DNA of 64,000 bases from Patescibacteria group bacterium (GTDB taxonomy: Bacteria > Patescibacteriota > Patescibacteriia > UM-FILTER-42-10), in contig JBAYGC010000004.1 of NCBI GenBank assembly GCA_041666845.1, positions 7,965 to 71,964 on the forward strand, given 5' to 3'. The notes beneath the pieces are model-generated. The model saw only the letters and a program-made list of their open reading frames with translations, did no database searches and had not been told where the DNA came from. Position numbers and translations under genes: made by a program. Numbering within the stretch: the first letter of the stretch is position 1; every line of letters begins with the position of its first letter. Of this stretch, positions 6,877 through 33,516 are shown piece after piece.

Positions 6877-7824
6877 TTATTTCAGTGTTGTTATTGGTCT
6901 TGACTGCGTAATATATATTTTATTTTTTTCTATCGCCCATTCAATATCCTGCGGATGCCGATAATGCTTTTCAATTGCTTCACAAACTGTTGCCAGCTTG
7001 ACGATTTGTTTGCCCGTAAGTTTCTGCCGCTCTTGTATTGCCTTTGGCACCTTAACTTTTTTTATTCCCTTAGTTCCGGCCTGGACAATCATTTCTTTTT
7101 GCTCGGAAATATTGACATCCAGGATTGCTTTCTCTTTTTTATCAAATACATACGTATCCGGTGTAATCTGTCCTGAAACTATCGCTTCACCTTGGCCATA
7201 ACCCGCTTCAATCACCATTTGATTCCGGTCATTAGTTACCGGATGGGCCGTAAAGGTGACACCGGACACTTCGGAATTAACCATTTTTTGCACCACCACC
7301 CCCACACTGACTTTGGTTTTATGCAGTTTCTTTTCAAAACGATAGAATATAGCACGCGGAGTAAATAATGAAGACCAGCATTTGCGCACAGCATCAGTCA
7401 AATTGGCACAAGTTACAAACAAATATGTTTCCAATTCCCCTGCCCAGGAAGCCACTGAGGAATCCTCTGCCGTTGCTGAGGAACGGACAGCAACGTATTT
7501 GGTCTTCAATTTGTTAAAGGATGTTATAACTTCCTTTGTAATATCTTCGGGAACGGTGAAATCATGAATCAAGTCCCGAATAGTATTGGATACCCGATCC
7601 ACACTGTTAATGTCATTCAGATTGACTTTCTTTAACAGTGCATCTATCTCAACATCCAGATCGGTTTCCGCTAAGAAACGCTCAAAAGTGCTGGAAAGTA
7701 TTACAAATCCAGGCGGAACTGGCATTTTTACCCTGGTCATCTCCCCCAGTTGTGCGCCTTTCCCTCCTGCTTCCGCTACACTCTTTCTATTTAATTGCGA
7801 AAAAGTTTTGGTAAATTTTGCCAT
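6877..7824 (-). CDS. Standalone PPDK_N-type ATP-grasp nucleotide-binding domain protein (PEP synthase / pyruvate-phosphate-dikinase / rifampin-phosphotransferase N-terminal domain only)
   Basis: 315 aa. Motifs GGKGAQLGEM, VAVRSSATAEDS, ASWAGELETY, FTPRAIFYR, VSVGVVVQKMV and DIEWAIE are diagnostic of Pfam PPDK_N. It has no swivel or PEP-binding domains. Confidence 0.8.
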   Translation of the reverse strand: MAKFTKTFSQLNRKSVAEAGGKGAQLGEMTRVKMPVPPGFVILSSTFERFLAETDLDVEIDALLKKVNLNDINSVDRVSNTIRDLIHDFTVPEDITKEVITSFNKLKTKYVAVRSSATAEDSSVASWAGELETYLFVTCANLTDAVRKCWSSLFTPRAIFYRFEKKLHKTKVSVGVVVQKMVNSEVSGVTFTAHPVTNDRNQMVIEAGYGQGEAIVSGQITPDTYVFDKKEKAILDVNISEQKEMIVQAGTKGIKKVKVPKAIQERQKLTGKQIVKLATVCEAIEKHYRHPQDIEWAIEKNKIYITQSRPITTLK

Positions 7825-7837
7825 GAAAAATCTTTTA

Positions 7838-7866
7838 TATTATAGCATAACTCATAATAATTCACA
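7838..7866 (-). promoter_or_regulatory. Candidate sigma70 promoter for the PPDK_N/T4SS operon (TTGTGA-17-TATAAT on minus strand)
   Basis: The reverse complement reads ttgtgaattattatgagttatgctataat, about 14 nt before the ATG at 7824. Confidence 0.35.
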
Positions 7867-7958
7867 ACATTACATACAGGCGCAATTACACCCCGCCTGC
7901 CTACGACCGAAGCCGTAGGCTACTGGCGGGCAGGAATCGCGCCTGTTCCCTGGCCATT

Positions 7959-7986
7959 GACCCCGTTAGAGCATTTGCTCTAACGG
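7959..7986. promoter_or_regulatory. Perfect 13-bp inverted repeat with 2-nt loop (ccccgttagagca tt tgctctaacgggg) abutting the -35 box; candidate operator or insulating hairpin
   Basis: Seen directly in the sequence. It is absent from the otherwise homologous copy-2 promoter region, where the flanking sequence ccattgac | ttgacaaat is contiguous. It is flanked by a TTGAC direct repeat. Confidence 0.5.
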
Positions 7987-8015
7987 GGTTGACAAATCTA
8001 CAAAAAAGGTATATA
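7987..8015 (+). promoter_or_regulatory. Consensus sigma70 promoter (TTGACA-17-TATAAT) driving GC-rich cassette 1
   Basis: TTGACA at 7987-7992, a 17-nt spacer, and TATAAT at 8010-8015. The ~190-nt conserved leader follows. Confidence 0.7.
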
Positions 8016-8213
8016 ATCCTGTGTTAATTAACCTACTAAAAGCAGGTCTAAGGCAGGCAGTTTTATTGGATTGCGTTAGTCAAATAAAATAGCGTGCTTT
8101 TGCACATGATTGCCCATTCGAAAACAATTGAGGAGTAATCCTCATAACAATACATTCACTACGTGAAGACGTGGTGAAGCAGGAGTATCCACTCCCCAGC
8201 CAAGGAGTTCGTG

Positions 8214-8867
8214 ATGGAACAGTTAGTTTCGCAGATCCTGGCCTGGATCCCCGTAGGTGCCACCCGCGTCTCTCTGCTCGGCCGGCATTCGCTGTCCGTG
8301 CAGATCGGACCGAACGATTCCCGCACGCTCTCGCCCAAGGGCATCAAGCTCTGCCACGAGGTGAGCGACTTCTACAACCGACTCGTCCGCGAACTGGAAA
8401 TACGCTTCGGTGGCAGTGCTGTTTGTTTCCGGTCCGAGATGGCGCGTTCGTTCTCGACCGTCTGGGAGATCTTGAATCCCGACCACATCATCTGCGACCC
8501 GCGCCTCAACCTGCTGGCCAGCCTGAAGAAGATCCAGGGTGGCGAATGGTACAGGAGACGGAAGATCGCTGGAAGATCCGACGTGGCGATCATTTCCGAT
8601 TTTCTAGCGGCCGATCTCAGTGTCGGCGAAGACCAGCCGTTCGGAGAAAATGCCTTGAACTATCGGGAGTGGGCTACCGAACTGGATAATGACACCCGCG
8701 TACGAATCACCTTCGCACACGAGGTGGCCTGTTCCCTGGCGGCCCACCCTTATCTCGACTCCGATGTCGAACCCGGCCTGTCCGAATGCCAGGCTTACCT
8801 GTTCTGTGTGGACGACGCGGGCAATGTCCTACACGTGATCAAGGTCACCCCTCCGGCTACCCTGTAG
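8214..8867 (+). CDS. GC-rich (~62% GC) ORF of unknown function, cassette paralog 1 (217 aa)
   Basis: AAGGAG ribosome-binding site at 8202-8207, 6 nt before ATG at 8214. Homologous along its whole length to 12600..13247, and the changes between the copies are mostly synonymous third-position changes, so it is protein-coding in this frame. The C-terminal 50 aa are identical to the paralog (VAFAHEVACSLAAHPYLDSDVEPGLSECQAYLFCVDD.GNVL.VIKVTPPATL). No recognisable family. The ORF-track start at 8211 is a GTG; the ATG at 8214 is preferred. Confidence 0.7.
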   Translation: MEQLVSQILAWIPVGATRVSLLGRHSLSVQIGPNDSRTLSPKGIKLCHEVSDFYNRLVRELEIRFGGSAVCFRSEMARSFSTVWEILNPDHIICDPRLNLLASLKKIQGGEWYRRRKIAGRSDVAIISDFLAADLSVGEDQPFGENALNYREWATELDNDTRVRITFAHEVACSLAAHPYLDSDVEPGLSECQAYLFCVDDAGNVLHVIKVTPPATL

Positions 8868-8896
8868 CCAACTCGCTCATTCCTCGCTTTTCGAAA

Positions 8897-8936
8897 GGTT
8901 CCCATTCACTCTCACGAATGCTCGGAGCCTTTTTTC
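8897..8936 (+). terminator. Rho-independent terminator of cassette 1 (nested stem ggttcc…ggagcc + T6), identical in cassette 2
   Basis: The outer stem ggttcc/ggagcc encloses the hairpin cattc-actctcac-gaatg and is followed by tttttt. It is 100% identical at 13277-13316. Confidence 0.6.
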
Positions 8937-9043
8937 TTTGGTAAGAAACACCCGCAAGCGCGAATTGCATTTACTATTCAAAAAAATAATGGTTGATTTT
9001 TTTGTCCAGATGTGTTACAATAAGCATATTAATCACCCAAACA

Positions 9044-10028: not shown

Positions 10029-11777
10029 ATGAATCAAACAAATGTAATGTTGATATTTATTTTTTCAGTTGTTATTGTTGCAATTGTTATTAGTTTTTGC
10101 ATTTATATCAGAAAATTACGTGGTACACTAAAAGCTGAAAGTGAAAAAAGAGAATCAGAAAACAGCCGGCGCATGTATGAGCTGTCAATTCTCAAAGAAA
10201 TCGGGGAAAGAGCCGGTTATTCATTAAATACTCAAAGGATTGCCGACATTATCACCGGTTCTTTAAAGGAACTAATTGATTATTCCACTACCTCCTACAT
10301 CCTGGAAGATTCTCAAAAGAAAGAACTGCTTTTTAAGTGCGAAGTTGAAGAAAGCGTCAGCCCGAAATTTGTAGAAGATGTAAAGAGCAGAATGGTAGCG
10401 GCGCTTTCGATATTAACCGACCAGAATTATCAGGAACGAAAGATTGAAGAAGTCGTTGCGGGGACTATTTTGGACGATGAGAATAATGAGCCTTTGAGTT
10501 CATTTTTTAATATTCCGCTGACCGTAGGTGACAAAGTTGTCGGTATTCTGAACGTGTCCAGCACTAAAACTGGCTTGTATAAAGAAGATGAGATGACCAT
10601 CCTGTATAAAATAACCGCACAGGCATCCAATGCCGTTACCCGTCTACAAGACGTATTGGACTCCGAGCAGAGCAAACTGAACGCCATGGTGGTCAGCATG
10701 GCTGACGGAGTATTGATGATTGATAGAGAAAACAGGGTATATGTTATTAATCCCAAAGTTAAAGAACTACTGGGGATAGAAAGTGAAGAAATATCCATAT
10801 TTGATATTATTGAGGCTTTTGAGGGCAAGGTGGATTTCAGAACCAAACTTGAAGAGTGTATAAAACTGAACCGTCAGGAAGTGGTTGAAGAAACCTATCT
10901 GCAACACCGGTACATCCGAATTCTGTTCTCACCAGTCAAAGATAAAAACAAAGAAACTTTAGGAGCTGTGATTATTCTGCATGATATTACACATGACAAA
11001 GAACTGGAAAAGGTTAAAGAGGACTTCACCAGTATGATGGTGCACGATCTACGCTCTCCTTTGAACGGGATCCGGCTGATTTCTGAAATGCTACAGGATA
11101 AGAAAATGCCGAAGGATCAGTTTTTGCAGTCGGCAAAGATGATTCACGAAAGCACTACTAACATCCTGGAGCTGGTTAATGATTTACTGGACGTTGCCAA
11201 ATTAGAAGCAGGTAAATTTATTGTCGCTAAAGAAAAGGGTGATTTGAAATCGGTAATTACCAGCAGGATCAATTTCTTTCAGGCTCTCGCTAACGAAAAA
11301 AATATAAAACTTGATTCCTATTGGGAACCGGATATTGAACAAATTCCGTTTGATGAAAAAGAAATAGTACAAGTTTTGAATAATCTCCTGTCCAACGCAA
11401 TCAAGTTTACCAATAAAAATGGTAAAGTAACCGTACAAACACTGCTCCTAAAAAAAGATGAAGACGTTAATAAGAAAGCGGATGCCAATAAAATTAAATG
11501 GTTTATTTCGAATGCATCCCCTGCTCTGATGCAGAGTAAAAATGATTTGTTAATCTGCGCCGTCACTGATAACGGCAGTGGCATTGAACAGGATAAAATT
11601 AAAAAGCTGTTTAATAAATTCCAGCAGGTAGAAAGCGGTAAAAAATCAGAGGTAAAAGGGACAGGGCTGGGTTTAGTAATCGCCAAGGGCATAATTGAAG
11701 CGCATGGTGGCATGGTTGGTGTTGAATCCGTAATGAAAAAAGGTAGTACGTTTTATTTTACATTACCATTAGAATAA
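10029..11777 (+). CDS. Sensor histidine kinase (N-terminal TM, GAF-like and PAS-like regions, HisKA H-box, HATPase_c)
   Basis: N-terminal TM helix. H-box MVHDLRSPLNGI, N-box LSNAIKFT, G-boxes DNGSGI and GTGLGLVIAKGIIEAHGG. Confidence 0.85.
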   Translation: MNQTNVMLIFIFSVVIVAIVISFCIYIRKLRGTLKAESEKRESENSRRMYELSILKEIGERAGYSLNTQRIADIITGSLKELIDYSTTSYILEDSQKKELLFKCEVEESVSPKFVEDVKSRMVAALSILTDQNYQERKIEEVVAGTILDDENNEPLSSFFNIPLTVGDKVVGILNVSSTKTGLYKEDEMTILYKITAQASNAVTRLQDVLDSEQSKLNAMVVSMADGVLMIDRENRVYVINPKVKELLGIESEEISIFDIIEAFEGKVDFRTKLEECIKLNRQEVVEETYLQHRYIRILFSPVKDKNKETLGAVIILHDITHDKELEKVKEDFTSMMVHDLRSPLNGIRLISEMLQDKKMPKDQFLQSAKMIHESTTNILELVNDLLDVAKLEAGKFIVAKEKGDLKSVITSRINFFQALANEKNIKLDSYWEPDIEQIPFDEKEIVQVLNNLLSNAIKFTNKNGKVTVQTLLLKKDEDVNKKADANKIKWFISNASPALMQSKNDLLICAVTDNGSGIEQDKIKKLFNKFQQVESGKKSEVKGTGLGLVIAKGIIEAHGGMVGVESVMKKGSTFYFTLPLE

Positions 11778-11791
11778 TTTATAATACAAAT

Positions 11792-12160
11792 ATGGCAAAA
11801 AAAATATTAGTCATCGACGATGACGATGCAATCCAACAAGTTGTAAAATCTGCCCTCCTTTCCGAAGGCTATGAGGTAAGAATTGCCGATGATGGCAAAG
11901 AGGGTATAAAAGTAGTTAAAGAATTCGAACCGGACTTGATAATACTGGATATTATAATGCCGGTAATGGATGGTTTGGGGTTCTTAAAAGAAAATAAAAA
12001 TAAATCAATTCCAGTCATTATACTGACTTCTCTGGGCAAAGATGATAATGAGCAGAAATTTATTGATCTGGGAGCCAAGCATTTTCTGCAGAAGAGTATT
12101 GTACATATTGATGATATTAAACAAAAAATTGCTGAGGTATTGAAAGAGAAAAGCAAATAG
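11792..12160 (+). CDS. Stand-alone response-regulator receiver (CheY-like) domain protein
   Basis: KKILVIDDDDAIQ…DLIILDIIMPVMDGLGF…ILTSLG receiver signature. 122 aa, with no output domain. Confidence 0.8.
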   Translation: MAKKILVIDDDDAIQQVVKSALLSEGYEVRIADDGKEGIKVVKEFEPDLIILDIIMPVMDGLGFLKENKNKSIPVIILTSLGKDDNEQKFIDLGAKHFLQKSIVHIDDIKQKIAEVLKEKSK

Positions 12161-12217: not shown

Positions 12218-12362
12218 TTTATTGTTCACCCCCACACTGACTTTGGTTTCGTGTGGTTTCTTCTTATAACGATAGAAAATAGCACATAAAGTGAATAATG
12301 AAGACCAGTATTTGCACACATCATCAATCAAATTGGTTTTAGTAACAAACAAATATGTTTTC
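12218..12362 (-). pseudogene. Relic fragment of a PPDK_N ATP-grasp gene (duplicate of 7283-7432)
   Basis: About 85% nucleotide identity to the internal part of 6877..7824. It encodes …CKYWSSLFTLCAIFYRYKKKPHETKVSVGV…, which matches VRKCWSSLFTPRAIFYRFEKKLHKTKVSVGVV in the intact gene. It lacks both gene ends, and the ORF-track entry 12005..12352 is only this relic. Confidence 0.55.
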
Positions 12363-12380: not shown

Positions 12381-12409
12381 TTGACAAATATGCAAAAATG
12401 GTATATAAT
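12381..12409 (+). promoter_or_regulatory. Consensus sigma70 promoter (TTGACA-17-TATAAT) driving GC-rich cassette 2
   Basis: TTGACA at 12381-12386 and TATAAT at 12404-12409. The leader at 12410-12599 is about 90% identical to the cassette-1 leader. Confidence 0.7.
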
Positions 12410-12599
12410 CCCCTGTTAATTAACCTGCTAAAAGTAGGTCTAAGGCAGGCAGTTTTATTGGATTGCGTTAGTCAAATAAAACAGCGTGCTTTTGCACATA
12501 GTTGCCCATTCGAAAACAATTGAGGAGTAATCCTCATAACAATACATTCGCTGCGTGAGCACGTGGCGAAGCAGGATCCCCCAAGCCAAGGAGTTCGTG

Positions 12600-13247
12600 A
12601 TGGAAATGGGACAGATGATCCAAATGATCTTTTCCGCGATTCCCGACGGTACCACCCGCGTGTCCTTGCTTGGTCGGCATTCGCTGTCCGTGCAGGACGG
12701 GCCCAACGACACCCGCGCGCTCTCGCCCAAGGGCATCGAACTCTGTCACGAGGTGCGTGGTTTCTACGCTCATCTCGTCCTGAATCTGGAACTCATCGGC
12801 AACGCCTCCTACTACTATTCCCAGATGGCACGTTCACTCATAACCATCCGGGAGATTCTGCTTCCGCGTAACTTCATCCTGGATGAACGACTGAACCTGC
12901 TGGCCAGCCTGAAGAAGATACAGGGCGGCGCCTGGTTCAAGGCGCAGAAGGACACCGGGCATTCCGATGTGGAGATTATCCGCGCCTTCCTGACCGATTC
13001 CAGCATCGGCGCCGGCCAGCCGTTCAAGCAGAACGCCGCGAACTACCTGGCCTGGGCTACCGAACCATACGGCCACCGTCTGCGAGTCGCTTTCGCACAT
13101 GAGGTGGCCTGTTCCCTGGCGGCCCACCCCTATCTCGACTCCGATGTCGAACCCGGCCTGTCCGAATGTCAGGCCTACCTGTTCTGCGTGGACGACTCGG
13201 GCAATGTCCTGCGCGTGATCAAGGTCACCCCTCCGGCTACCCTGTAG
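12600..13247 (+). CDS. GC-rich ORF of unknown function, cassette paralog 2 (215 aa)
   Basis: Same ribosome-binding-site context (AAGGAGttcgtgATG). About 60% aa identity to 8214..8867, with an identical C-terminus and 3' UTR. Confidence 0.7.
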   Translation: MEMGQMIQMIFSAIPDGTTRVSLLGRHSLSVQDGPNDTRALSPKGIELCHEVRGFYAHLVLNLELIGNASYYYSQMARSLITIREILLPRNFILDERLNLLASLKKIQGGAWFKAQKDTGHSDVEIIRAFLTDSSIGAGQPFKQNAANYLAWATEPYGHRLRVAFAHEVACSLAAHPYLDSDVEPGLSECQAYLFCVDDSGNVLRVIKVTPPATL

Positions 13248-13276
13248 CCAACTCGCTCATTCCTCGCTTTTCGAAA

Positions 13277-13316
13277 GGTTCCCATTCACTCTCACGAATG
13301 CTCGGAGCCTTTTTTC
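13277..13316 (+). terminator. Rho-independent terminator of cassette 2 (identical to 8897-8936)
   Basis: Identical sequence to the cassette-1 terminator. Confidence 0.6.
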
Positions 13317-13386
13317 TTTGGGAAAAACTTGAAATTTTATCAAAATAATGCCAATATTACACTAATAGACAATTAAACATAAACTT

Positions 13387-14280
13387 ATGAAAGAAATCGG
13401 ACCAATAGCAGTAGATAAAATTGAACAAGGAAAGGAAAGGGAAGGAGAATTACCAAAAATGACCGTCTTTTTATTACGCCATGGAGAAAGTAATAATGAC
13501 AAAACAAATCCCAATCGAGGACTTACTAACAAGGGTACGGAGCAGGTAACAGAAAGCATTAATCAGATATTAAATAGCCTATTGTTAGAAGGCAATCCGG
13601 ACTTTGAAGCATGGGATAATGAAGAGTCAAGAATAACCGCCGTTCAAAATGCCATCCAAAATGTAGAATTCCATCTGAGAGATTCCGGTACTGCCAGAAC
13701 ATTGGAGCAGGTTTGGCTGGAATATGAAATACTAAAACAATACGGAGTACCGGAAGAACACATTTATCTGCCACAAAGCGCATTTGAATATAAAGATAAA
13801 GAACCGGACGAAAAAGCCGGTCCCGGCATAGCTAAAAGGCTCAAAGGAGTTCAAGGAATGGACCAGAACCCGGCATATAGGACTAAAATCAAATCAAAGG
13901 AATACCAAGAACGCGTTGGTGCAACCGGAGACATGATGGCCTGGGCCATTTCACCCGAAGAAGATGTCCCGGATGATGTTGAAAAAAGAAGTCACATGGA
14001 AGAACGTTACGCGTCTGATATTGCGAAACTTGACCGGGTAGTCACCCACAAAATGGAAGGTTATCCAAAACGGGTAGTAGCGATTGCCAATTCCCATGCT
14101 TCCATTGCTACTATTGCCGCCGCCAAAGAATCTGGAATCCCACTCGAAAAACTCATGGGGAAAATCGGGGAAGTGCCGGAAGCTCAGGGTTTGCGTTATG
14201 ATTTTTATGAAGGTGAAACTGAACATACAGCCAAACCCTTCGGCCCTGAGATGGAACAGGTTATAACAGAATTGAGATAA
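13387..14280 (+). CDS. Histidine phosphatase superfamily (phosphoglycerate-mutase/SixA-like, RHG motif) protein
   Basis: The N-terminal motif VFLLRHGES is the catalytic RHG signature of branch-1 histidine phosphatases. The true start is possibly the internal Met at 13459 (MTVFLLRHGES). Confidence 0.65.
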   Translation: MKEIGPIAVDKIEQGKEREGELPKMTVFLLRHGESNNDKTNPNRGLTNKGTEQVTESINQILNSLLLEGNPDFEAWDNEESRITAVQNAIQNVEFHLRDSGTARTLEQVWLEYEILKQYGVPEEHIYLPQSAFEYKDKEPDEKAGPGIAKRLKGVQGMDQNPAYRTKIKSKEYQERVGATGDMMAWAISPEEDVPDDVEKRSHMEERYASDIAKLDRVVTHKMEGYPKRVVAIANSHASIATIAAAKESGIPLEKLMGKIGEVPEAQGLRYDFYEGETEHTAKPFGPEMEQVITELR

Positions 14281-14374: not shown

Positions 14375-15883
14375 TTATTTAATCTTCAATATCCCGGTAT
14401 TACCATCTACTGCCACGATTTGTCCGTCTTTAAGAATCTTGGTTGTCATTCTCAAGCCAATAATTCCGGGAATTCCTGCCTCACGAGCTAGAGTGGCAGG
14501 ATGTGAAGTAATCCCCGGCCCTCCATCACAAATCAGCGCTGAAGCTATAGAAAGCACTTGAGTAAATACAGGCGTAGCTTGCAGAGTACATATAATATCT
14601 CCCCTTTTCACTTTATGGAATGAATCTGGATTAATCACAATCTTCACCGGCCCCTTGGCAACACCCGGTGAAACAGCCATACCTACTAATTCTTTTACGT
14701 TCTTGTCTACTTCCACAAATTTTTTATAATACTGTTTCGCTTTTTCTCCTGTAAACAAACTCGTTTTGCCATTTTCCATAATAAACGCACACAGCTTTAT
14801 TCTTTCATTAAGGATATTACTCATATCTAAATCTTTGGTAAGCATCGGTCTGACTTCTGCGGTTCGCAAATGACGCGCCTGGCGCATGGAAAGCCCGCCA
14901 CGCCGAGCTATTTCCATCAAAATCGGATCATAGTAATAAAGGGTCTGTGAGACAATGCTTTTCCGCAGTTCTTTATAGTAGATCCCTTCGCGCATTGTTT
15001 GAAATAAGCGTTGATGTTTTTTGTCAATTTTTAATTTATCTTGAATCTCATTTATCTTCGTGTCAATTTCTTTTTCCTTTATCAGCATTTTTTCTAATAT
15101 ATTCCCAGGATTTCTTTTTAGATGCTTTTTAAAACGAATGATAAAATCTTCGTATGTTAATACCGGATCGTCATAATCCCTAGTAATCCAAAAGAATTTT
15201 CTCTCATGATTCTTTATTAATCTCAATAACTCTTTATCTTTTTGAATAGAGCTAGTGGTATTTATGACATTTCCCATAAAATAATCTGCCCACTTTTTTC
15301 GCTTATTAATAATCTTGCATATTTTTAAAGCAGCTAAAGTTTCCTGCCTACTTACCATTGCTTTTGTTTCTGTAATAAGAGCATCCACATAATGCGCGGC
15401 TTTTTTTGTATCCGATTCTTTAGCGGCTATATACTCCTGCAAATATTTAAACAAATAGTTTTCTATAGCCAAAATCGGGAAATAGTGGGAATACACCTGT
15501 TTATAGCGTCTTTCGTATTCCTCGTGCAATCCCGCCAACCTGCTGTTACTTACTGTTCTAAGTTTTTTTAGATTATTATTCTTCTTCAGAAATCCATAGA
15601 AGCTTTTGGCAAACGCCTTCTGTGTTTTACCAAGCTTAATAAACATGTCCGGCTTTAGAAATACTATTTTTAAAACATGCTTCCCCACTCGTTCGTGATC
15701 GGCCTTATCAAAATACAAATACATATGATTCTCTTCAAACATCTGCACTATTCTTTTATAGGTAGTCCCGACTACATTTTTTAGCTCTTTTCCGATTGAC
15801 TCCATTGAAAGGTAATTTGGAAAAGGGCTCATCCGCTGCCTTTGGGATATTTGGAACCATACGATTTTTTTATTCTTGATCAT
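14375..15883 (-). CDS. PEP-utilizing-enzyme mobile (phosphohistidine swivel) domain protein, paralog 1; divergent ~390-aa helical N-domain
   Basis: C-terminal GGPGITSHPATLAREAGIPGIIG plus upstream GVAKGPVKIV…GDIICTLQATP match Pfam PEP-utilizers with the catalytic His. No ATP-grasp or PEP-binding TIM barrel. Confidence 0.8.
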   Translation of the reverse strand: MIKNKKIVWFQISQRQRMSPFPNYLSMESIGKELKNVVGTTYKRIVQMFEENHMYLYFDKADHERVGKHVLKIVFLKPDMFIKLGKTQKAFAKSFYGFLKKNNNLKKLRTVSNSRLAGLHEEYERRYKQVYSHYFPILAIENYLFKYLQEYIAAKESDTKKAAHYVDALITETKAMVSRQETLAALKICKIINKRKKWADYFMGNVINTTSSIQKDKELLRLIKNHERKFFWITRDYDDPVLTYEDFIIRFKKHLKRNPGNILEKMLIKEKEIDTKINEIQDKLKIDKKHQRLFQTMREGIYYKELRKSIVSQTLYYYDPILMEIARRGGLSMRQARHLRTAEVRPMLTKDLDMSNILNERIKLCAFIMENGKTSLFTGEKAKQYYKKFVEVDKNVKELVGMAVSPGVAKGPVKIVINPDSFHKVKRGDIICTLQATPVFTQVLSIASALICDGGPGITSHPATLAREAGIPGIIGLRMTTKILKDGQIVAVDGNTGILKIK

Positions 15884-16013
15884 GATACAATAATATGTTT
15901 AGTGCTTTATTAAATTGGCTGTAGCTTTTCATTAAGATAATTAACTTAATTTGGGATTTTTTGTTCATAGTTTGTTACTCGTTAGGAATATGAAGCTTTA
16001 GCTCCATTTGTAT

Positions 16014-17540
16014 TCAATAAACCTGAGAGTTTATATTCCTTTTAATGATGCCTTTTGTCGCGTCTACTTCCACCACGTCACCATCCTTGAATACTTTAGT
16101 GGCAACCTCTGTACCAATTATACATGGTATTCCCAATTCCCGGGATACTATTGCTGCATGGCAGGTAATACCACCAGCATTAGTAACAATGGCAGCTGCT
16201 TTATTCATAGCTGGCACCAATGATGGATTGGTGGAATAACTAAGCAAAATATCACCCTCATTGAATTTGTTCAAATCGCCAGTGGAATTAATTATCTTCA
16301 CAATGCCTTTGGCTTTGCCCGGATAGGCTACTTGACCTCTGATAATATCACTGTGTTTAATATTGGGCTTGGTCTGGACAAATAATTTTTTAAATTCTTT
16401 AGCCTTCGCACCAGTATAAAAGCCAACTCGACCATTTATTAAAATATGAGCTGAACATTGATACCGTTCATTTAATTGATTGTTAGTAAATGCTTTTTTG
16501 TTTTTTAACAAAATATCCTGATACTCAGCTCTAGTGACATAACGAGCCTGTAGTGGTGACCAATAAAAACGACTGGCAATTTCTTGATACCATCTGCCCA
16601 TAGCATAATTATGGTAATAAACCTGAACTTCTTTCCTAATTTCTTTTAAATAAGCTAGCTCCCGAACAATCTCGATTTGGTGCCATTCTTCTTTAGTAAA
16701 AAATGATTTTGCTTTGCTGTGAAACTTTTTAAGTTCAGCTAACCTTTTCTGTTTTATCCTTATTTCTTTATCAGGAAATATCCCCCATCGCCTTTTGACT
16801 AGATCAAGATAATATTCTGGACCAGCAGGCGGACCAACATAATAATATTGCAACCAGCCAAACTTTTCGGCCAGTCTTTTCAAATCGTTTTGAGCGTCAG
16901 TGGATAATTCTCCTATATTTTTACTATTTTTAAACTGTCTTAATAAATCTTTATTTTTCTTTGTTTTACTAATAAATTTTAAAACTGATAAATTTTCTTC
17001 GCTAATAGCGGTCGGCTTAGTAGAAGCAACTAAATTACTAAATACAATTTCCGGGTTACCTAATTTTTTTAACTTAAGCTCTAATTCTTGATATAAATTC
17101 ACCGAAAATTTAACCCTACTCATATCCAGTGTTTGCACTACCAAACCCCATTTCCAGCACTCAGCAAAAACATCATACAAGCCACAGTAAATTTTAAATA
17201 ACTGATTGTTTGTTTTCATCTTTAGATTGTCGGCCAATAAACGTCGACATAATATTTTCATCATTTTAAAAGCATCATAGTGGCCACGACAAAGCTGCTG
17301 AAAAAACTTTTTATCTTTAATTAACTTCTGACCAAAATAATCCCCTGCTTTTATAAACTGCGATTCTACGGGCCCCCAAGTCACAAAATCTTTTTCAAAA
17401 ACAAATAAACTCTCCAACTTTAATTTGTTGGCAGAAAGTTTTGGCAAATCTATCTTAAAATTTTTCTCATTCAAAATACACCAAGGAGTCAAAGCTACAT
17501 TATAATCCTCAACTAAAATGACAAATTTTCTTTTTGGCAT
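16014..17540 (-). CDS. PEP-utilizing mobile domain protein, paralog 2
   Basis: C-terminal GGITCHAAIVSRELGIPCIIG and AYPGKAKGIVKII…GDILLSYSTNP. Confidence 0.8.
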   Translation of the reverse strand: MPKRKFVILVEDYNVALTPWCILNEKNFKIDLPKLSANKLKLESLFVFEKDFVTWGPVESQFIKAGDYFGQKLIKDKKFFQQLCRGHYDAFKMMKILCRRLLADNLKMKTNNQLFKIYCGLYDVFAECWKWGLVVQTLDMSRVKFSVNLYQELELKLKKLGNPEIVFSNLVASTKPTAISEENLSVLKFISKTKKNKDLLRQFKNSKNIGELSTDAQNDLKRLAEKFGWLQYYYVGPPAGPEYYLDLVKRRWGIFPDKEIRIKQKRLAELKKFHSKAKSFFTKEEWHQIEIVRELAYLKEIRKEVQVYYHNYAMGRWYQEIASRFYWSPLQARYVTRAEYQDILLKNKKAFTNNQLNERYQCSAHILINGRVGFYTGAKAKEFKKLFVQTKPNIKHSDIIRGQVAYPGKAKGIVKIINSTGDLNKFNEGDILLSYSTNPSLVPAMNKAAAIVTNAGGITCHAAIVSRELGIPCIIGTEVATKVFKDGDVVEVDATKGIIKRNINSQVY

Positions 17541-20553: not shown

Positions 20554-21627
20554 TTATAATTTTCTCACTATTCCTTTATTCGCGTCTACTTCCACCAGAA
20601 CACCGTCTCTAAAAACTTTCGTCGCAACTTTAGTCCCTACAATACAGGGCTTCTTCAATTCTCTTGCGGTAATAGCAGCATGAGACAGCAATCCACCGGA
20701 ATCAGTAATAAAACCGCCCGCCTTCTTCATTAAGGGCAAATACTCCGGCCTGGTCATGCTGGCAACTAAAATATCCCCTTTAGTGAAAGAAGTGATATTT
20801 TTCGGGTCATGAACAATTCTGACATGCCCGACGATTTTCCCCCTTTGTGCTACAGTTCCGTGGAGAACTTCAAATGACTGAACCTTATTAAGAATTGCCT
20901 CAACTTGCTTAAATTGGCGCCCGATAAAATGAATATTCTTATTGGTATTTGCAAACACAGCAAATCCAGGGTTGCGCTTCTGCAGTATCAATTTTGAAGG
21001 AAGTGGTTTGCCGTTCAGATAATCCTCAATTTCCTGGTATGTGCAACATAAGACTAATGATTGCGGCAATTTTTCTTTTTTTCCAATTTGTTTTGCCATA
21101 TTTTCCAGAAACTCTTCGGTTTCAGTCAGCACTGTTTCAGCATACACCCTGGCTTTCTCAAGTAATACAAAATATCTTTTAATCTGATTTTCAGACAATC
21201 CATCGACTATATATTTTACATTAATATGCGGCTGATAATATGCCACCAGCTTCTGAAAATATTCTTCAAATATTTTTGCAGTAAATATCGAACGGCTGTG
21301 AGTGCGAAGAAATTTCCTGATATGGTCCGACTGTTTTTTCAAATTATTGCAGATCTGAATTACACGCTTTGGATTACGGTTTACTTCATCAGCCAAATAG
21401 TGACAGAATTCCTCCCGATCTCTCTGTCGTGCCCATCCTTGGCTTTTTCCATTTTTTACTACTATTACAGTTTCGGGTAAGAAAGGTCTTCCGCGGAACC
21501 TGATCAAGCTGACATATTCCACTGCAAAGTGACTGCAGGAGAAAAGACTCCATTTTCCGGCCCAAATCTGTAACCAGTCCGGTCGGTTCAGTTCATCGGG
21601 TTTTATTTGGACAGTCTTTTTCATCAA
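20554..21627 (-). CDS. PEP-utilizing mobile domain protein, paralog 5 (shorter N-domain)
   Basis: C-terminal GGLLSHAAITARELKKPCIVG. 357 aa. Overlaps paralog 6 by 4 nt. Confidence 0.75.
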   Translation of the reverse strand: MMKKTVQIKPDELNRPDWLQIWAGKWSLFSCSHFAVEYVSLIRFRGRPFLPETVIVVKNGKSQGWARQRDREEFCHYLADEVNRNPKRVIQICNNLKKQSDHIRKFLRTHSRSIFTAKIFEEYFQKLVAYYQPHINVKYIVDGLSENQIKRYFVLLEKARVYAETVLTETEEFLENMAKQIGKKEKLPQSLVLCCTYQEIEDYLNGKPLPSKLILQKRNPGFAVFANTNKNIHFIGRQFKQVEAILNKVQSFEVLHGTVAQRGKIVGHVRIVHDPKNITSFTKGDILVASMTRPEYLPLMKKAGGFITDSGGLLSHAAITARELKKPCIVGTKVATKVFRDGVLVEVDANKGIVRKL

Positions 21628-28796: not shown

Positions 28797-29422
28797 TTTT
28801 TTATCCTACTTCCCCAGTTAATTGGATCTTTAAGATACTGTTTAATCGCTAAAGTATCTTCGAGATCAAAAATGTTGTGTTTAATACCAAAATTGGCAAT
28901 TTCTTGAAAAGTTACTAGATAGTGAATCTTTATTTTACTTGCTTTCTCGATTTTTTTTGCCAGTTCCTTTTTGACTATTGAAACTACTATAACATCTTCA
29001 ACTTTTGCCTTGTTTTTCCTAAGTACTTTGACGGCATTGTTAATATTGCTTCCAGTCACCATCATATCATCTATCAGTACCACTTTCTGGCCAGGCTTGA
29101 GAATCCCTTCAATTTGTTTTTTTGTACCATTTGTTTTTGGTTTTTTTCTGACGTAAATCATTGGTTTGACAAGTGCTCGGGCGAGAATACCGGCAAAAGC
29201 GATGCCTGCCGATTCATTTCCCGCAATTATATTATAATGCTTTGGCAGTAACCCCTTTAATTGATTAAAAACTATTGATAGTTCCTTGGGGTATGATAAT
29301 AGATTTCTATGGTCAAGATAAATAGGTTGATATAGCCCCGCTCCACCTAATAGCGGCTTTTTGTAATCACAATAAACATTTTGCGCCTTGTATAATGCCT
29401 TTATGATTTTTGGTTTGTTCAT
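28793..29422 (-). CDS. OPRT-like PRTase, paralog 2
   Basis: VVLIDDMMVTGSN PRPP motif. Overlaps neighbouring genes by 4 nt on both sides. Confidence 0.7.
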   Translation of the reverse strand: MNKPKIIKALYKAQNVYCDYKKPLLGGAGLYQPIYLDHRNLLSYPKELSIVFNQLKGLLPKHYNIIAGNESAGIAFAGILARALVKPMIYVRKKPKTNGTKKQIEGILKPGQKVVLIDDMMVTGSNINNAVKVLRKNKAKVEDVIVVSIVKKELAKKIEKASKIKIHYLVTFQEIANFGIKHNIFDLEDTLAIKQYLKDPINWGSRIKK

Positions 29423-30999
29423 AGCTTTTGGATTATCCCTCTTTCTGCATCAACCAATATTTTATCACCGTCGTTTAGTAATTTATCACAATCCGTCACG
29501 CCAACCACGCACGGTATTTTCATTTCTCTTGCCACGATTGCAGTATGACAAGTCAATCCACCCGCTCCTCCGATTAATGCTGATGCTTTTTTCATGGCCG
29601 GTACTAAATTCGGATTGGTATTGTGCGCTACCATAATATCCCCTTGCCGCATCTTCTTCATATCTGCCGGAATGTTTACTATCTTTACCACCCCATCAAC
29701 CCTGCCAGGATAGGCGCAAGTTCCAGAGAGTTGATTTTTGCTTTTTTTGGATTTTTCTATGCTTATGGTCTTCATGAATTTTTCCGCTTCACTCCCGGTT
29801 ATAACTCTATTGATATACCCCGCCTGTCCCTTGCGCTTCCAATAATCAACCGCCTTTTTAATCCTTTCATTCAGTATGTGAACATCCACTTTGCCAACTT
29901 TCAAAATGGTTATTATTTCACTCGGCTTTAAAGCCTGCATCTGGCTGATCGACAGTCCAAACCTTTTTCCTACCTCTTTAAAAATTTTCTCATAATAATA
30001 CATTGCGTTGTATAGTCCATCCTTCCGGTAACTCTTCATATAAACCATTCCCTGAGCCATCTTCAGAATATCTTTTTCATGTTCAGAAAATCCGATTTGA
30101 CTAATGAGCTTTTTCTGTTCTTTCAATAAATCATCTCGATCATTTTGTTTTTTACTTAACATTGCTTGTGGATTTTTCTTTCCACGCAATAATGCCTGCC
30201 AACGAGCCAAATAATCCTTCAACGGATAAGCCGGACCTTTATATTGATATGTTAATGGACTAAATTTTTGATAGTGTCTGATGATATCCTTATAAATTTG
30301 CCTATCAATCCTTTCTAAATTATTCATCAAACTTTGCAAACTAGACTGAATAAATACCTCCTTAAGCTTTCTTCTTCTAACGATTGCTGATGCAATTTTC
30401 AGAAAACTTTCTTCTTCTTTGTATAACAAACTACGTTTTGTTGGTGAGGTAAGAATTGAGAAAGCTATAGAAATACTATGTTTTAGATTAGTATTTTTCA
30501 ATTTTTTTACAAACATCTTCATAATCGCCTTAGTAACCAGCTGGTCCCCGGCATCGGATTGCCAAGTTACACCTAACGCATATCCATGACTAAGCATGTG
30601 AACATTTCTAATTTCTTTCATCAGTTTCGCAATTTGCATGTTACTCATGCTTGATAAATTCATTCTTTTCACTCTGTTCATTATCTTGAAGAATTCAGCA
30701 GTCGCTTCCTCAACATCTTTAATGATTTTTAAAGCCCATCTCGGTTTCTTTATTACCTTCTTTGCTAGGAATCCGCATTGCGCTTCAAATTCTTTCTGCA
30801 CAAAGATCATTTGAGAAGAATCACCATCAAAATAAGTAATATATTCCCGCGCAAAACTCCCCAATCCTTGTTTTGGGTACACAGAAAAAAATGCTTCACT
30901 TGGAATTTCCATCATGAAAATAGTATTCTGGGGGATATCTTCAACTACTTCCCATATTTTTTTACCAATTAACCCAGATTTCATGTTTTTCTTTTTCAT
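29419..30999 (-). CDS. PEP-utilizing mobile domain protein, paralog 7 (start trimmed to Met at 30999; ORF-track N-terminus runs through a tRNA)
   Basis: C-terminal GGLTCHTAIVAREMKIPCVVG and AYPGRVDGVVKIV…GDIMVAHNTNP. The N-domain shares the Y.YKGPAYP motif with the other paralogs. The upstream 183 nt of the tracked ORF overlap tRNA-Arg and are rejected. Confidence 0.75.
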   Translation of the reverse strand: MKKKNMKSGLIGKKIWEVVEDIPQNTIFMMEIPSEAFFSVYPKQGLGSFAREYITYFDGDSSQMIFVQKEFEAQCGFLAKKVIKKPRWALKIIKDVEEATAEFFKIMNRVKRMNLSSMSNMQIAKLMKEIRNVHMLSHGYALGVTWQSDAGDQLVTKAIMKMFVKKLKNTNLKHSISIAFSILTSPTKRSLLYKEEESFLKIASAIVRRRKLKEVFIQSSLQSLMNNLERIDRQIYKDIIRHYQKFSPLTYQYKGPAYPLKDYLARWQALLRGKKNPQAMLSKKQNDRDDLLKEQKKLISQIGFSEHEKDILKMAQGMVYMKSYRKDGLYNAMYYYEKIFKEVGKRFGLSISQMQALKPSEIITILKVGKVDVHILNERIKKAVDYWKRKGQAGYINRVITGSEAEKFMKTISIEKSKKSKNQLSGTCAYPGRVDGVVKIVNIPADMKKMRQGDIMVAHNTNPNLVPAMKKASALIGGAGGLTCHTAIVAREMKIPCVVGVTDCDKLLNDGDKILVDAERGIIQKL

Positions 31000-31005
31000 T
31001 CTAAT

Positions 31006-31080
31006 TGGTGCCCCCATGAGGAATCGAACCTCAATCTTAGGCTCCGGAAGCCCACATTCTATCCGTTGAACTACAGGGGC
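31006..31080 (-). tRNA. tRNA-Arg (anticodon CCG), CCA encoded
   Basis: The reverse complement reads GCCCCTG-TA-GTTC-AACGGATA-GAAT-G-TGGGC-TTCCGGA-GCCTA-AGAT-TGAGG-TTCGATT-CCTCA-TGGGGGC-A-CCA. This gives a cloverleaf with a 7-bp acceptor stem (two G-U pairs), U8, a GTTCGATTCC T-arm, U33 and anticodon CCG. Confidence 0.85.
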
Positions 31081-31234
31081 ATGTTGAAATATTAATCTAC
31101 TACTTGCCTTCCGAAGCTCAAATCTAATTTGAGCGAAAGAAGGAGCTACAGGCGCATTCTTGACGCAGCTTAATATTAACACGTTTATATATACTGGATC
31201 TATTGCCCGTCCGCTTTAATACTATTTTCAACTA

Positions 31235-31930
31235 CTATAACTCGTCTTTTTTAAGTGATTTTTTCCAAGCCAAAAACATCCGCCAACTCTTTTTATCTTT
31301 ATGCCAGCCGGTAGGATCAGCCAAATAAGCTTTCTGGACAGTTATTGCTTCAACAGGCAGTTTTTTAGCTTTCCTCACATAGTCAAGCCATTCGTGGCGG
31401 TTATAAAGATTATCAAAAGTAATTCCCATTTTCTGTAATCGTTTTTTAAAATTCTGATTCCTTGCATGCCAAGAATCATTGATTACCACCACGTGCTTCA
31501 CCCTAATCCCGTCCTTAGCGCAATCCTGAATCGCTTTCAATACCGTACTCCCTAAACCGATTACATCGTCTACTAAAACCCCAACGGAATTCTTTTGGTA
31601 GTCCCCTTCCACCCATTTTTTTCGCAAGGTAGGCTTTCTCTTTTTGTTTAAATAGGCAAAGGGAATTCTGGTTTTTAGACTGGTTGCCAAAGCAATGGGA
31701 ATGCCAGCCATAGGAATACCCACGATTAAATCTACTCTTTTCTTTCGATTGTATTTATTAATAATCTTCCCCAATTCCTCCGCGATTATCTCCATTACCT
31801 CAGGATGTGAGTAAAGGCATCTACTGTCATTAAAGAAAGGTACAATCGCTCCAGTAGTCGACTGTCTGAAGGGACCGACCGAGATTTTCATTTTGGCTAC
31901 TGCATTTAATACTCGTTTATTCTCGCTCAT
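31235..31930 (-). CDS. OPRT-like PRTase, paralog 3, W-rich tail
   Basis: GVLVDDVIGLGST. Tail GWHKDKKSWRMFLAWKK. Confidence 0.7.
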   Translation of the reverse strand: MSENKRVLNAVAKMKISVGPFRQSTTGAIVPFFNDSRCLYSHPEVMEIIAEELGKIINKYNRKKRVDLIVGIPMAGIPIALATSLKTRIPFAYLNKKRKPTLRKKWVEGDYQKNSVGVLVDDVIGLGSTVLKAIQDCAKDGIRVKHVVVINDSWHARNQNFKKRLQKMGITFDNLYNRHEWLDYVRKAKKLPVEAITVQKAYLADPTGWHKDKKSWRMFLAWKKSLKKDEL

Positions 31931-32631
31931 ATCTTATCAAAACTTTCATCAAAAATTAAGTTCTTTTCTACTACACCTAATTGTTTGAATTCCTTCCAAT
32001 TTTTGGGATCCTTTTGCCAGCCGAAAGGATCGTCAAGCATTTTGATAATGAGTCTGCAAAAATCCTTTTCTAGAAATTTCTGATCTGCAGCATATTTCAT
32101 TATACCCGGCCAAGTTATTAGTGCGATAAATTTATATTTTCTACTCTTTCGGAGCCAATTTTGTGCCTTGCGGTATTTGAGTCCGTAAAATGCATCCATA
32201 ATCACGATAATACCCTTAACCTTCAAACCAGCTGCTTCTAATGTTTTAACTATCTCCTTCTTATCACCACCAGTAGACATAGCATCATCCACTATTACCA
32301 CACTCTGACCCTTATGATACATGCCCTCGATAACGTTATTTGTATTGTACCCCTTCGGTTTTTTTCTCAGATAAAGAAAGTCTCTTTTTAGAGTACTGGC
32401 TACCGCTACACCGAAAGGCACCCCTGCGGCTTCCCGGCTGGCGATTAAATCCGATTTTATAGTCGCCGCTGCTTTTGCCAGTTCTTGGGTCAGTATGCTA
32501 AAAACCCTGTTTCGGGAAAAAGCATTACGATGATCGGGATATAGGGGAAAATGTCCGATACGCGGACTTATAAAATTCCCAGCAATAAAATATCCTTTGA
32601 ATAACAATGCTTTTGCCGCCCGTTTATTCAT
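31927..32631 (-). CDS. OPRT-like PRTase, paralog 4, W-rich tail
   Basis: VVIVDDAMSTGGD. Tail GWQKDPKNWKEFKQLG. Confidence 0.7.
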   Translation of the reverse strand: MNKRAAKALLFKGYFIAGNFISPRIGHFPLYPDHRNAFSRNRVFSILTQELAKAAATIKSDLIASREAAGVPFGVAVASTLKRDFLYLRKKPKGYNTNNVIEGMYHKGQSVVIVDDAMSTGGDKKEIVKTLEAAGLKVKGIIVIMDAFYGLKYRKAQNWLRKSRKYKFIALITWPGIMKYAADQKFLEKDFCRLIIKMLDDPFGWQKDPKNWKEFKQLGVVEKNLIFDESFDKI

Positions 32632-32697
32632 ATAATTATCCTGAAATTAGCTACTTAGCAAGTTTTTCCTGCAATGAACCCACAGGATAAATTTACT

Positions 32698-33372
32698 CTA
32701 TTTAGCTGAATCAGTAAAACCTTCAGATTTTGCCAGTGAAACAAATTCGTTCCACTTTTTATTATCTTTCTGCCATATCTTCAAATTCTTCCATATATCA
32801 AACATATAATCACCGAGTTTCTTCGAGATATATCCGTTCTTAACCATGTATTTGACCAGATCATTATGTTTTACGAATGAGTGAATTCTTATTTTATTCT
32901 TTGCATAAAATGGTATGTACTCCACACCAGCATCATAAAGTACCAAAACGTCTTTTACAACCAGACCTTTTCTCTGTAATGTCTTAATGAAGCGTTCTTT
33001 GGTACTGCCGGTCCCGATTCCATCATCAACTACCAAGACATTCTCACCTTTTCTATACAACCCTTCCAGTAAAGTCGCTGTCGAACCGTCTTTGCGCGTT
33101 TTCTGCCGGAGATAAATAAAAGGTTTGTGTGAAGCAAGCGATACGGCCATAGCTAGAGGTGTGCCTGATACCATCGTGCCTGCTACCAGATCAATATTTT
33201 TTCCCTTCATAAAATTAGCAATTTCTTCTGACACAACTTTCATTTTATCCGGGTGGGAATAAAGACGCTTGCTGGTAATATAAATCGGAGATGGTTCGCC
33301 CAGTGAGCCGTAAAACTTGCCAAAAACAAAAAAACCAAAGTCACTCAGTAGCTTGGCGATACGTTTATTCAT
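32698..33372 (-). CDS. OPRT-like PRTase, paralog 5, W-rich tail (start taken at MNKRIAKLL, as in the other paralogs)
   Basis: VLVVDDGIGTGST. Tail IWQKDNKKWNEFVSLAK. The ORF track extends 11 codons further upstream, to 33405. Confidence 0.7.
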   Translation of the reverse strand: MNKRIAKLLSDFGFFVFGKFYGSLGEPSPIYITSKRLYSHPDKMKVVSEEIANFMKGKNIDLVAGTMVSGTPLAMAVSLASHKPFIYLRQKTRKDGSTATLLEGLYRKGENVLVVDDGIGTGSTKERFIKTLQRKGLVVKDVLVLYDAGVEYIPFYAKNKIRIHSFVKHNDLVKYMVKNGYISKKLGDYMFDIWKNLKIWQKDNKKWNEFVSLAKSEGFTDSAK

Positions 33373-33516
33373 AAAAACAATTAGTATTAATACATTAGAT
33401 AGCAACTACTATCATAACGGATTTTCCAAAATTTGAAAACCCCATAACCTACTATCTTCTACGCTTGGTATTTGAATTCGGGAATTAACTCCCACACTTG
33501 ATACTAAGTGTAGAAG

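Follow-up and report, generated by a model that had tools for sequence, protein, structure and literature searches.

A putative two-component dikinase locus in Patescibacteria with one ATP-grasp subunit and seven acceptor modules

In certain dikinases the catalytic machinery is divided between two polypeptides. The HpeHI system of Rhodococcus, characterised in 2025, is a two-component dikinase whose main product is AMP, in which HpeI is the ATP-grasp (PDB 9GOJ) and HpeH joins a substrate domain resembling that of rifampin phosphotransferase (RPH) to a swivel domain with an essential His, while CreHI and the phenylphosphate synthase PpsAB are homologous two-component systems (PMC12167813). In this article, a related locus is described from a stretch of 64,000 nucleotides, referred to as the window, of a chromosome of the ultra-small Patescibacteria, or candidate phyla radiation (CPR) (GenBank assembly GCA_041666845.1, contig JBAYGC010000004.1, positions 7,965 to 71,964). 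It contains one standalone ATP-grasp gene and seven co-oriented genes, each encoding a helical N-terminal domain (N-domain) followed by a C-terminal phosphohistidine swivel domain. The locus is probably a two-component, multi-acceptor small-molecule dikinase, in which a single ATP-grasp would charge seven acceptors. Its components are as follows, with L and P numbers being the identifiers used in this analysis.

6877..7824, minus strand: standalone ATP-grasp (PPDK_N) subunit, 315 aa, by analogy the putative shared ATP-binding and His-charging component
14375..15883, minus strand: module 1, 502 aa, RPH-like helical N-domain and swivel; PF00391 E 1.3e-14, N-domain hidden Markov model (HMM) E 1e-89; orthologues L087 (61%) and P0277 (47%)
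16014..17540, minus strand: module 2, 508 aa; PF00391 E 6e-26, N-domain HMM E 2e-88; orthologue P0292 (46%)
17562..19028, minus strand: module 3, 488 aa, the paralog whose structure was modelled
19030..20508, minus strand: module 4, 492 aa; PF00391 E 1.8e-25; orthologue P0268 (58%)
20554..21627, minus strand: module 5, short form, 357 aa, N-domain of about 250 aa; PF00391 E 8e-25
21624..23249, minus strand: module 6, 541 aa; PF00391 E 3.5e-26; orthologues L014 (52%) and P0273 (51%)
29419..30999, minus strand: module 7, 526 aa, among phosphoribosyltransferase (PRTase) genes; PF00391 E 4.5e-24; orthologue P0275 (51%)

The window shares with HpeHI, CreHI and PpsAB a separate PPDK_N ATP-grasp of about 35-40 kDa, to which the 315-aa protein corresponds, an RPH-like substrate domain preceding a C-terminal swivel His domain with a conserved GGxxxH, and, presumably, a dikinase mechanism. 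The three described systems are one-to-one gene pairs found in aromatic-catabolism operons of Actinobacteria and Proteobacteria, whereas the window combines one grasp with seven modules, belongs to a family found mainly in the CPR and the DPANN archaea, and has no aromatic catabolic genes nearby; the extremes of the one-to-many layout in the CPR and DPANN are seven modules near a standalone grasp, eight in a polyprotein and eleven in an array. The window N-domain has no detectable sequence similarity to the NCBIfam PRK08296 models of about 600 aa, which have a C-terminal swivel and which we take to be of the PpsA/HpeH type; the swivel alone aligns with them (residues 370-487).

RPH itself (PDB 5FBS/5HV1; PMC4844700) is a single chain with its own grasp, whereas the window genes are split and about 18% identical to it. 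Phosphoenolpyruvate (PEP) synthase and pyruvate phosphate dikinase (PPDK) share the ATP-grasp with the window, and the swivel of the PEP synthase 8a8e is about 60% identical to a window swivel over about 100 residues, with the motif GGxT[SC]HAAI in common; unlike the window proteins, in which the acceptor domain is helical and RPH-type and the swivel C-terminal, these enzymes possess a TIM barrel and a central swivel. A first-pass annotation of the window, made from its sequence alone, had ascribed the order ATP-grasp, substrate domain, His domain to both RPH and PEP synthase, which holds for RPH, whereas PEP synthase has its His domain in the centre (PMC4844700). The layout may also be likened to the phosphotransferase system (PTS), in which Enzyme I, through HPr, serves many Enzyme II proteins, so that one charging component likewise supplies many phospho-His acceptors, although the PTS donor is PEP and not ATP, the homology is confined to the swivel and the window system has no transporters.

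Since two-component RPH-like dikinases have already been published (PMC12167813), the split itself is not new. No earlier description appears to exist of the one-to-many layout, of polyproteins with several modules, of the occurrence in the CPR and DPANN, or of the N-domains as a distinct family; the literature covered, which was incomplete and included papers on DPANN protein families and on secretion systems of Patescibacteria, contained no description of such arrays, an absence that is not proof.

Domain composition of the ATP-grasp subunit and the modules

The 6877-7824 product matches PPDK_N over the full length of that domain (PF01326, E 4e-99, profile positions 3-312 of 328), Pfam detects no second domain in it, and it is the one intact PPDK_N grasp encoded in the window, as had been proposed. 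Its 120 best homologues are all PPDK_N-only proteins of 308-350 aa, 64-100% identical to it and distributed across Patescibacteria. For the grasp as for the swivels, true PEP synthase is a closer match than HpeI or RPH, the grasp matching PEP synthase 8a8e at E 5e-70, the grasp domain of RPH (5hv6) at E 3e-57 and HpeI (9goj) at E 6.5e-48. The NCBIfam RPH models score far below their cut-offs, with RIF_Ptrans_rph reaching 285.9 bits on the grasp and 60.1 bits on module 3 against a cut-off of 999.

In all seven paralogs, PF00391 is the only Pfam domain, located at the C-terminus with E values from 1.3e-14 to 3.5e-26. The catalytic swivel His is invariant in the seven paralogs and in a 48-sequence alignment, within a motif of the T/SxxGGxxxH type. 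No ATP-grasp, cryptic or otherwise, and no PEP/pyruvate TIM barrel was detected in the paralogs by Pfam, profile and structure comparison, which bears out the original description of these proteins as swivel proteins without a grasp or barrel of their own.

No Pfam model covers the N-domains. Both their sequence and their fold identify them as homologues of the RPH rifampin-binding domain: the seven-paralog profile aligns to residues 512-865 of Listeria RPH (E 7e-27), a span that takes in the latter half of this domain together with the swivel, and a confident AlphaFold2 (AF2) model of module 3, consisting of a helical N-domain and a C-terminal swivel, has RPH as its closest structure. Four residues, K286, R289, E325 and R343 in module 3 numbering, are invariant in the 48-sequence alignment. 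In the profile alignment, K286, the invariant Lys of a KxxR[KR] motif, falls on Arg666 of RPH and the next basic residue on Lys670, while RPH Glu667 is not conserved in the paralogs. In RPH, Arg666, Glu667 and Lys670 hold the transferred phosphate, and mutation of Arg666 or Glu667 abolishes the second half-reaction (PMC4844700).

The N-domain length of 350-400 aa given in the first-pass annotation does not apply to module 5, which has no match to the N-domain HMM and in the paralog alignment also lacks the first 150 or so residues of the N-domain. Short modules resembling it occur in L020 and P0051, and short forms of about 350-370 aa recur, namely at 20554-21627 (minus strand) in the window and in L003, L006, L009, L028 and P0012, the last of which has the short form fused ahead of a full-length module. 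The short-form module may have a different function, for example as a carrier or regulator. An apparent fusion of modules to a UDP-GlcNAc 2-epimerase domain (PF02350 in P0057, P0060 and, weakly, module 5) was rejected, with the matches lying below the gathering score and the reported stretches in P0057 and module 5 overlapping the swivel. The start of module 7 is placed at the ATG at 30999 because tRNA-Arg(CCG) occupies 31006-31080. Four-nucleotide gene overlaps are found at 21624/21627, 28793/28796, 29419/29422 and 31927/31930.

The window paralogs are mutually 25-37% identical, and mean identity is 49% between their swivels as against 19% between their N-domains. A conserved grasp combined with similar swivels and divergent N-domains fits a common docking partner with differing acceptor sites. 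Modules 1-4, 6 and 7 each have their own full-length orthologues, 40-60% identical, in other genomes, and module 3 is 54% identical to a Diapherotrites protein. Judged from these comparisons, the paralog subfamilies are old and conserved.

Family distribution and linkage of grasp and modules

A profile of the N-domain only was searched against 1.84 billion representative proteins, and the number of matching clusters (50% identity) fell from 4,476 at E<=1e-3 to 2,846 at E<=1e-10 and to 720 at E<=1e-30. Named matches come overwhelmingly from Patescibacteria and DPANN (Nanoarchaeota, Micrarchaeota, Woesearchaeota, Diapherotrites), and family members are annotated merely as "PEP-utilizing enzyme" or "pyruvate, water dikinase". 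Two surveys of gene neighbourhoods were carried out, one on the module side, with one genome per species and open reading frames (ORFs) classified by HMMs built in this analysis, and the other on the grasp side, with 80 metagenomic loci centred on a standalone grasp (21 of at least 15 kb, 35 of at least 10 kb).

Tandem module arrays are present in many CPR and DPANN genomes. A Nealsonbacteria contig (L006) carries 11 full modules and a fragment in 21.5 kb, L018 has 10 modules together with a standalone grasp, a Falkowbacteria contig (L022) has about 8 modules, and a Woesearchaeota contig (L016) has 6 complete and 2 partial ones. Each of the 80 grasp-centred loci has exactly one grasp. Among the 21 loci with 15 kb or more of DNA, 20 have modules within 10 kb of the grasp (on average 3.9, at most 7), in agreement with the expected co-occurrence of lone PPDK_N genes and modules, and modules are present in 28 of the 35 loci of at least 10 kb; grasp loci that were examined individually have 3, 4, 2 and 0 modules.

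Fusions link the two components directly. P0053 and P0056 have the order grasp-N-swivel, as in RPH, and P0034 the order N-swivel-grasp, while polyproteins combine one grasp with 2 modules (L010, P0303) or 4 modules (L036, 7958-13948). In P0260, with the order N-S-N-S-N-S-G-N-S (N, N-domain; S, swivel; G, grasp), the grasp lies in the middle. A Woesearchaeota metagenome-assembled genome (L020, 7214-18496) has an ORF of about 3,760 codons in which one grasp is followed by 8 swivels, each with GGxT[SC]HAAI. From co-localisation, fusions and the conservation pattern, in which the grasp is far more conserved than the modules, we infer that one nucleotide-binding module serves several substrate-specific modules, as the first-pass annotation had suggested for a split RPH-like unit.

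The grasp gene is also the first gene of a second conserved arrangement, a block containing type IV secretion system (T4SS)-like genes.

2397..6875, minus strand: genes downstream of the grasp, in the order orf464, PrgI/VirB3-like, TraC-like and VirB4-like ATPase (Pfam)

The conserved part of orf464 is its C-terminal 120 or so residues. Grasp and block recur in identical order in L011, L087, L088 and 11 of the 21 grasp loci of at least 15 kb. In a paper on T4SS of Patescibacteria, these systems are reported to lie often near the replication origin and the grasp gene goes unmentioned (PMC12102498). In L089, DnaA is encoded 10 kb from the grasp.

Proposed mechanism and alternative explanations

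From the observed domain make-up, homology, conserved residues, gene linkage, fusions, family size and conservation pattern, a reaction course can be proposed. By analogy with RPH and HpeHI, the C-terminal swivel of an acceptor would dock on the ATP-bound grasp, and its His (in GGxT[SC]H; H445 in module 3) would take the beta-phosphate, with release of AMP and Pi. The swivel would then return to its own RPH-like N-domain, where K286, R289, E325 and R343 may hold the phosphoryl group in place until it passes to a hydroxyl-type group on a small molecule occupying a cleft that varies between paralogs. Because each paralog belongs to an old, conserved subfamily, the substrates would form a fixed set of different compounds, and on these sequence grounds scavenged or common metabolites appear more likely than a fast-changing set of toxins. 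A more speculative extension, which is possible though doubtful, is that the CPR and DPANN possess a PTS-like, ATP-driven hub in which one grasp charges 2-12 interchangeable modules, each for a different scavenged metabolite, replacing the conventional kinases that these minimal genomes lack. If so, the hub would trap host-derived compounds through the strong driving force of the dikinase reaction, and its acceptors would come either from separate genes or from polyproteins with as many as 8 modules.

Several observations weigh against the multi-acceptor dikinase. The window grasp does not adjoin the modules and lies 6.5 kb from the nearest of them, while orf464 and the T4SS-like genes follow immediately downstream of it on its own strand, after a gap of 1 nt. 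On the module side, a standalone or fused grasp was present in only 13 of 42 loci in the DNA fetched, and the DPANN arrays L003, L004 and L016 have no grasp within 10 kb; arrays without a nearby grasp suggest that some modules may be charged by a different donor, for instance by the grasp domain of a PEP synthase proper. Within the paralog alignment, the KxxR[KR] region falls in a gap of module 5, and the swivel of module 1 is atypical, being the most divergent of the seven (GGPGITSHPA). HpeH alone shuttles phosphate between substrates (PMC12167813), so that some ATP-independent module activity is possible. Finally, the preference for metabolites over xenobiotics as substrates draws on a single line of evidence, the conservation of orthologues.

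These points lead to the question of whether the modules act independently of the standalone grasp altogether, either by substrate-to-substrate shuttling or by using the grasp of PEP synthase/PPDK or another donor, with the standalone grasp belonging functionally to the T4SS-like genes. The activity of HpeH, the many arrays without a grasp within 10 kb, the recurrent position of the grasp directly upstream of orf464 and the T4SS-like genes, and the presence of classic PEP synthase in many CPR and DPANN genomes are all in keeping with this explanation. It is nevertheless improbable, given the presence of modules in nearly all of the larger grasp loci, 9 of which have no T4SS block (e.g., L089 and L090), and the fusion of grasp and modules in three different arrangements; moreover, no activity is known for a PPDK_N protein on its own when a His domain to accept the phosphate is missing. 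The assumption that the paralogs are truncated or decaying PEP synthase genes without a function of their own has next to no probability. Their annotation as "PEP-utilizing enzyme", the restriction of Pfam matches to the swivel, and the decay visible in the locus (a grasp fragment and a remnant of a hydrolase gene) might suggest it, but the ORFs are intact, the key residues of catalysis and of the N-domain do not vary, AF2 yields a confident model, and the N-domain, with its 2,846 clusters at E<=1e-10, is RPH-like and no part of PEP synthase.

Two further explanations retain the dikinase chemistry and differ in its purpose or extent. The modules could constitute a battery for the inactivation of antibiotics or xenobiotics, each directed at a different toxic natural product, which would shield an epibiont surrounded by antibiotic producers. 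In favour of this, RPH is the nearest structure, the characterised relatives (RPH, HpeHI, CreHI, PpsAB and PigC/HapC) act on aromatic or hydrophobic compounds, and tandem arrays of divergent paralogs resemble resistance arsenals; yet old subfamilies with 40-60% identical orthologues across the CPR and even the DPANN argue for fixed substrates rather than an arms race, the recurrent (and once fused) hydrolases of the HAD and His_Phos types would undo an inactivating phosphorylation, and the NCBIfam RPH models are far below cut-off. An inactivation battery is thus unlikely, and the "diversified arsenal" of the first-pass annotation is weakened by the age of each subfamily. The same annotation had joined the dikinase modules, PRTases, RHG-motif protein, histidine kinase/response regulator (HK/RR) pair and aminoglycoside phosphotransferase (APH)-like kinase into one phospho-His/phosphoribosyl pathway or relay. 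These genes are interleaved in the window, PRTases stand directly beside a module in L001 and near the grasp in L097 and L105, and the RHG protein adjoins module 1 not only in the window but also in L001 and L087. The two grasp loci with PRTases are, however, the only ones among 80, the PRTases, APH-like kinase and orf195 (see below) occur in L085 and L086 without swivel modules in the DNA fetched (at most 10 kb on each side of the PRTase clusters), and the module 7 orthologue in L091 heads a module array and has no PRTase neighbour. The HK/RR pair, in turn, adjoins modules only in the window and its close relative L001 among the fetched loci annotated, and was rejected as a component; in the window its block lies between copies of a local duplication. 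Synteny thus lends no support to a functional coupling of PRTases and dikinase and largely contradicts a single integrated system, which is very improbable.

The multi-acceptor dikinase, if correct, would add one-to-many arrays and giant polyproteins to the recently defined subfamily of two-component dikinases, described so far from one-to-one pairs. Patescibacteria and DPANN make up a large share of microbial diversity, with a metabolism that is mostly inferred from gaps, and the present family is large (at least 2,846 clusters), often multi-copy per genome and common to two domains. Metabolic reconstructions in which such proteins may be taken for PEP synthase, and hence for a sign of gluconeogenesis, would be corrected by recognising them as multi-acceptor RPH-like dikinases. 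One ATP subunit with a panel of acceptors is also a simple experimental system, which could reveal small molecules phosphorylated by symbionts and is of relevance to enzyme modularity and biocatalytic phosphorylation.

Neighbouring genes and the rest of the window

The genes accompanying the modules include putative phosphohydrolases, represented by one complete gene and one remnant.

13387..14280, plus strand: RHG/SH-motif protein, 297 aa, probable enzyme of the histidine phosphatase superfamily (motifs LLRHGES and ANSHAS)
15873..15938, minus strand: remnant of a haloacid dehalogenase-type (HAD) hydrolase gene, last 22 aa (tblastn of the L001 HAD, 68% identity, E 1e-4)

The assignment of the 13387-14280 protein as a histidine phosphatase agrees with its RHG and SH motifs, while Pfam and the PDB yielded no match and a weak SixA match (E 3e-4) covers 38 residues of the RHG region only. 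Its orthologues are 88% (L001) and 46% (L087) identical, the latter with a faint His_Phos_1 match. A HAD gene precedes the module 1 orthologue in L001 and L087 and has been lost in the window genome. The motif I of the intact L001 HAD is FDCYG, which we take to be nearer to the DxYGT of haloacid dehalogenases than to the DxDxT of phosphatases. HAD genes stand beside modules in 4 module loci and occur in 8 of the 21 larger grasp loci (15 kb or more), in P0291 the HAD is fused to N-domain and swivel in the order N-swivel-HAD, and an HD-domain-like protein, assigned from a sequence motif only, recurs in three other loci. Phosphohydrolases accompany the kinases, and the HAD and histidine-phosphatase-type hydrolases probably act on the dikinase products.

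Around module 7 and beyond it lie five PRTases resembling orotate phosphoribosyltransferase (OPRT), together with two further genes.

28125-28796, minus strand: PRTase with full tail (PF00156)
28793-29422, minus strand: PRTase with truncated tail, stopping just after the W (PF00156; tail alignment)
31235-31930, 31927-32631 and 32698-33405, minus strand: three OPRT-like PRTases (PF00156; NCBIfam)
33712..34299, plus strand: 195-aa ORF (orf195) on the opposite strand, with a weak LOG-like motif (HSDAFIFFAGREGT)
34507..35553, minus strand: APH/methylthioribose (MTR) kinase-like kinase, 348 aa (PF01636 E 6e-7; MTRK E 1.5e-11)

All five PRTases match PF00156 (E 1e-7 to 1e-11) above the 26.3-bit gathering score, in accordance with the first-pass annotation; the tail said to be common to them, W.KD.K.W..F, is present in four, and its WKK end in two. 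The OPRT enzyme PyrE provides their best NCBIfam matches and shares with them the phosphoribosyl pyrophosphate (PRPP) loop and the Lys-rich flexible loop, which in the window proteins read V[LV]DD..TG, with an invariant DD..G, and RKKxK...EG. All five nevertheless remain below the OPRT equivalog cut-offs (68-129 bits against 106.8-245, e.g., 128.6 against 245), and they differ from PyrE in their C-terminal W.KD.K.W..F extension and in the occurrence of tailed PRTases as 3-5 paralogs accompanied by an APH/MTR-kinase-like kinase and the 195-aa ORF.

The APH-like kinase lies outside the region (6877-33405) to which the earlier description had assigned it and the HK/RR pair, both of which are present. 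The kinase bears a weak resemblance to MTR kinase. Its orthologues adjoin PRTases in L085 and L086 and are 31-32% identical over their full length, and those of the 31235-31930 PRTase, from Uhrbacteria (L085) and Kerfeldbacteria (L086), are 50-67% identical and keep the tail GWHKDKxxWxKFLxWK. The clusters comprise four PRTases in L085 (4750-10783) and three in L086 (8285-11751). Homologues of orf195 were found by tblastn in L085 (32%, E 2e-18) and L086 (36%, E 5e-11); as to its membership of the LOG family, its sole PDB match, 2a33, is at noise level (E 0.26) and Pfam has no match. The PRTases, APH-like kinase and orf195 (28125-35553) constitute a separate conserved CPR module independent of the dikinase arrays, which, as a conjecture, may serve nucleobase/nucleotide or ribose salvage. 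A defence system was considered and dismissed, PADLOC giving no match for the grasp, the modules, the RHG protein, the APH-like kinase or orf195; one PRTase had weak generic PRTase_III-A matches (E 1.5e-5).

Between the grasp and module 1, the window bears marks of rearrangement.

7989..8947, plus strand: direct repeat copy 1, about 1 kb, with the conserved gene 8211-8867 (repeat families D1-D4, 74-94% identical)
10029..12160, plus strand: HK (GAF-PAS-HisKA-HATPase) and receiver-only RR (Pfam), neighbours outside the proposed system
12218..12362, minus strand: decayed piece of a second ATP-grasp gene copy, spanning about residues 128-175 (grasp HMM; DNA alignment to 7280-7460)
12381..13327: direct repeat copy 2, with the gene 12555-13247 (repeat families D1-D4)

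The ends of the repeat copies are 92-94% identical and the middle 74-78%, and the repeat is richer in GC than its flanks. Its gene encodes 218 and 230 aa in the two copies, with homologues at the matching position in L001 (59-63%) and L087 (40%). Neither the gene nor the repeat DNA has a match in Pfam or Rfam, and the idea that the repeats are structured RNA was discarded in view of the conserved protein they encode. The fragment had been recognised in the first reading as a second, decayed grasp copy, and it is one: about 50 residues of an ORF at about 12005-12373 match the grasp HMM (E 7e-15), and some 140 nt of DNA are about 85% identical to about 7300-7440 inside the grasp gene. The HK/RR block lies between the two repeat copies, of which the second adjoins the grasp fragment, and this suggests a duplication-mediated rearrangement. 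Beside the HK are two tandem small ORFs (9043-9363 and 9382-9705, plus strand), paralogs about 60% identical to each other, which also stand by the HK in L001 and have no Pfam match.

Between module 6 and the PRTases, at 23313-28027 (minus strand), are genes for a type IV pilin-like protein (N_methyl), an fn3/FG-GAP protein and an 848-aa GHL15-like protein, which occupy the matching position in L001. The region is flanked by housekeeping and surface genes of a typical kind. Giant surface proteins are probably the products of a 3114-aa ORF containing one PA14 domain (40817-50161, minus strand) and of the adjacent 1220-aa ORF without a Pfam match (37138-40800, minus strand). In the leucyl-tRNA synthetase, of 1014 aa (53772-56816, minus strand), the catalytic domain is interrupted just before the editing domain (437-598) by an alpha/beta-hydrolase insertion (Ser_hydrolase PF06821, E 5e-19, residues 252-431).

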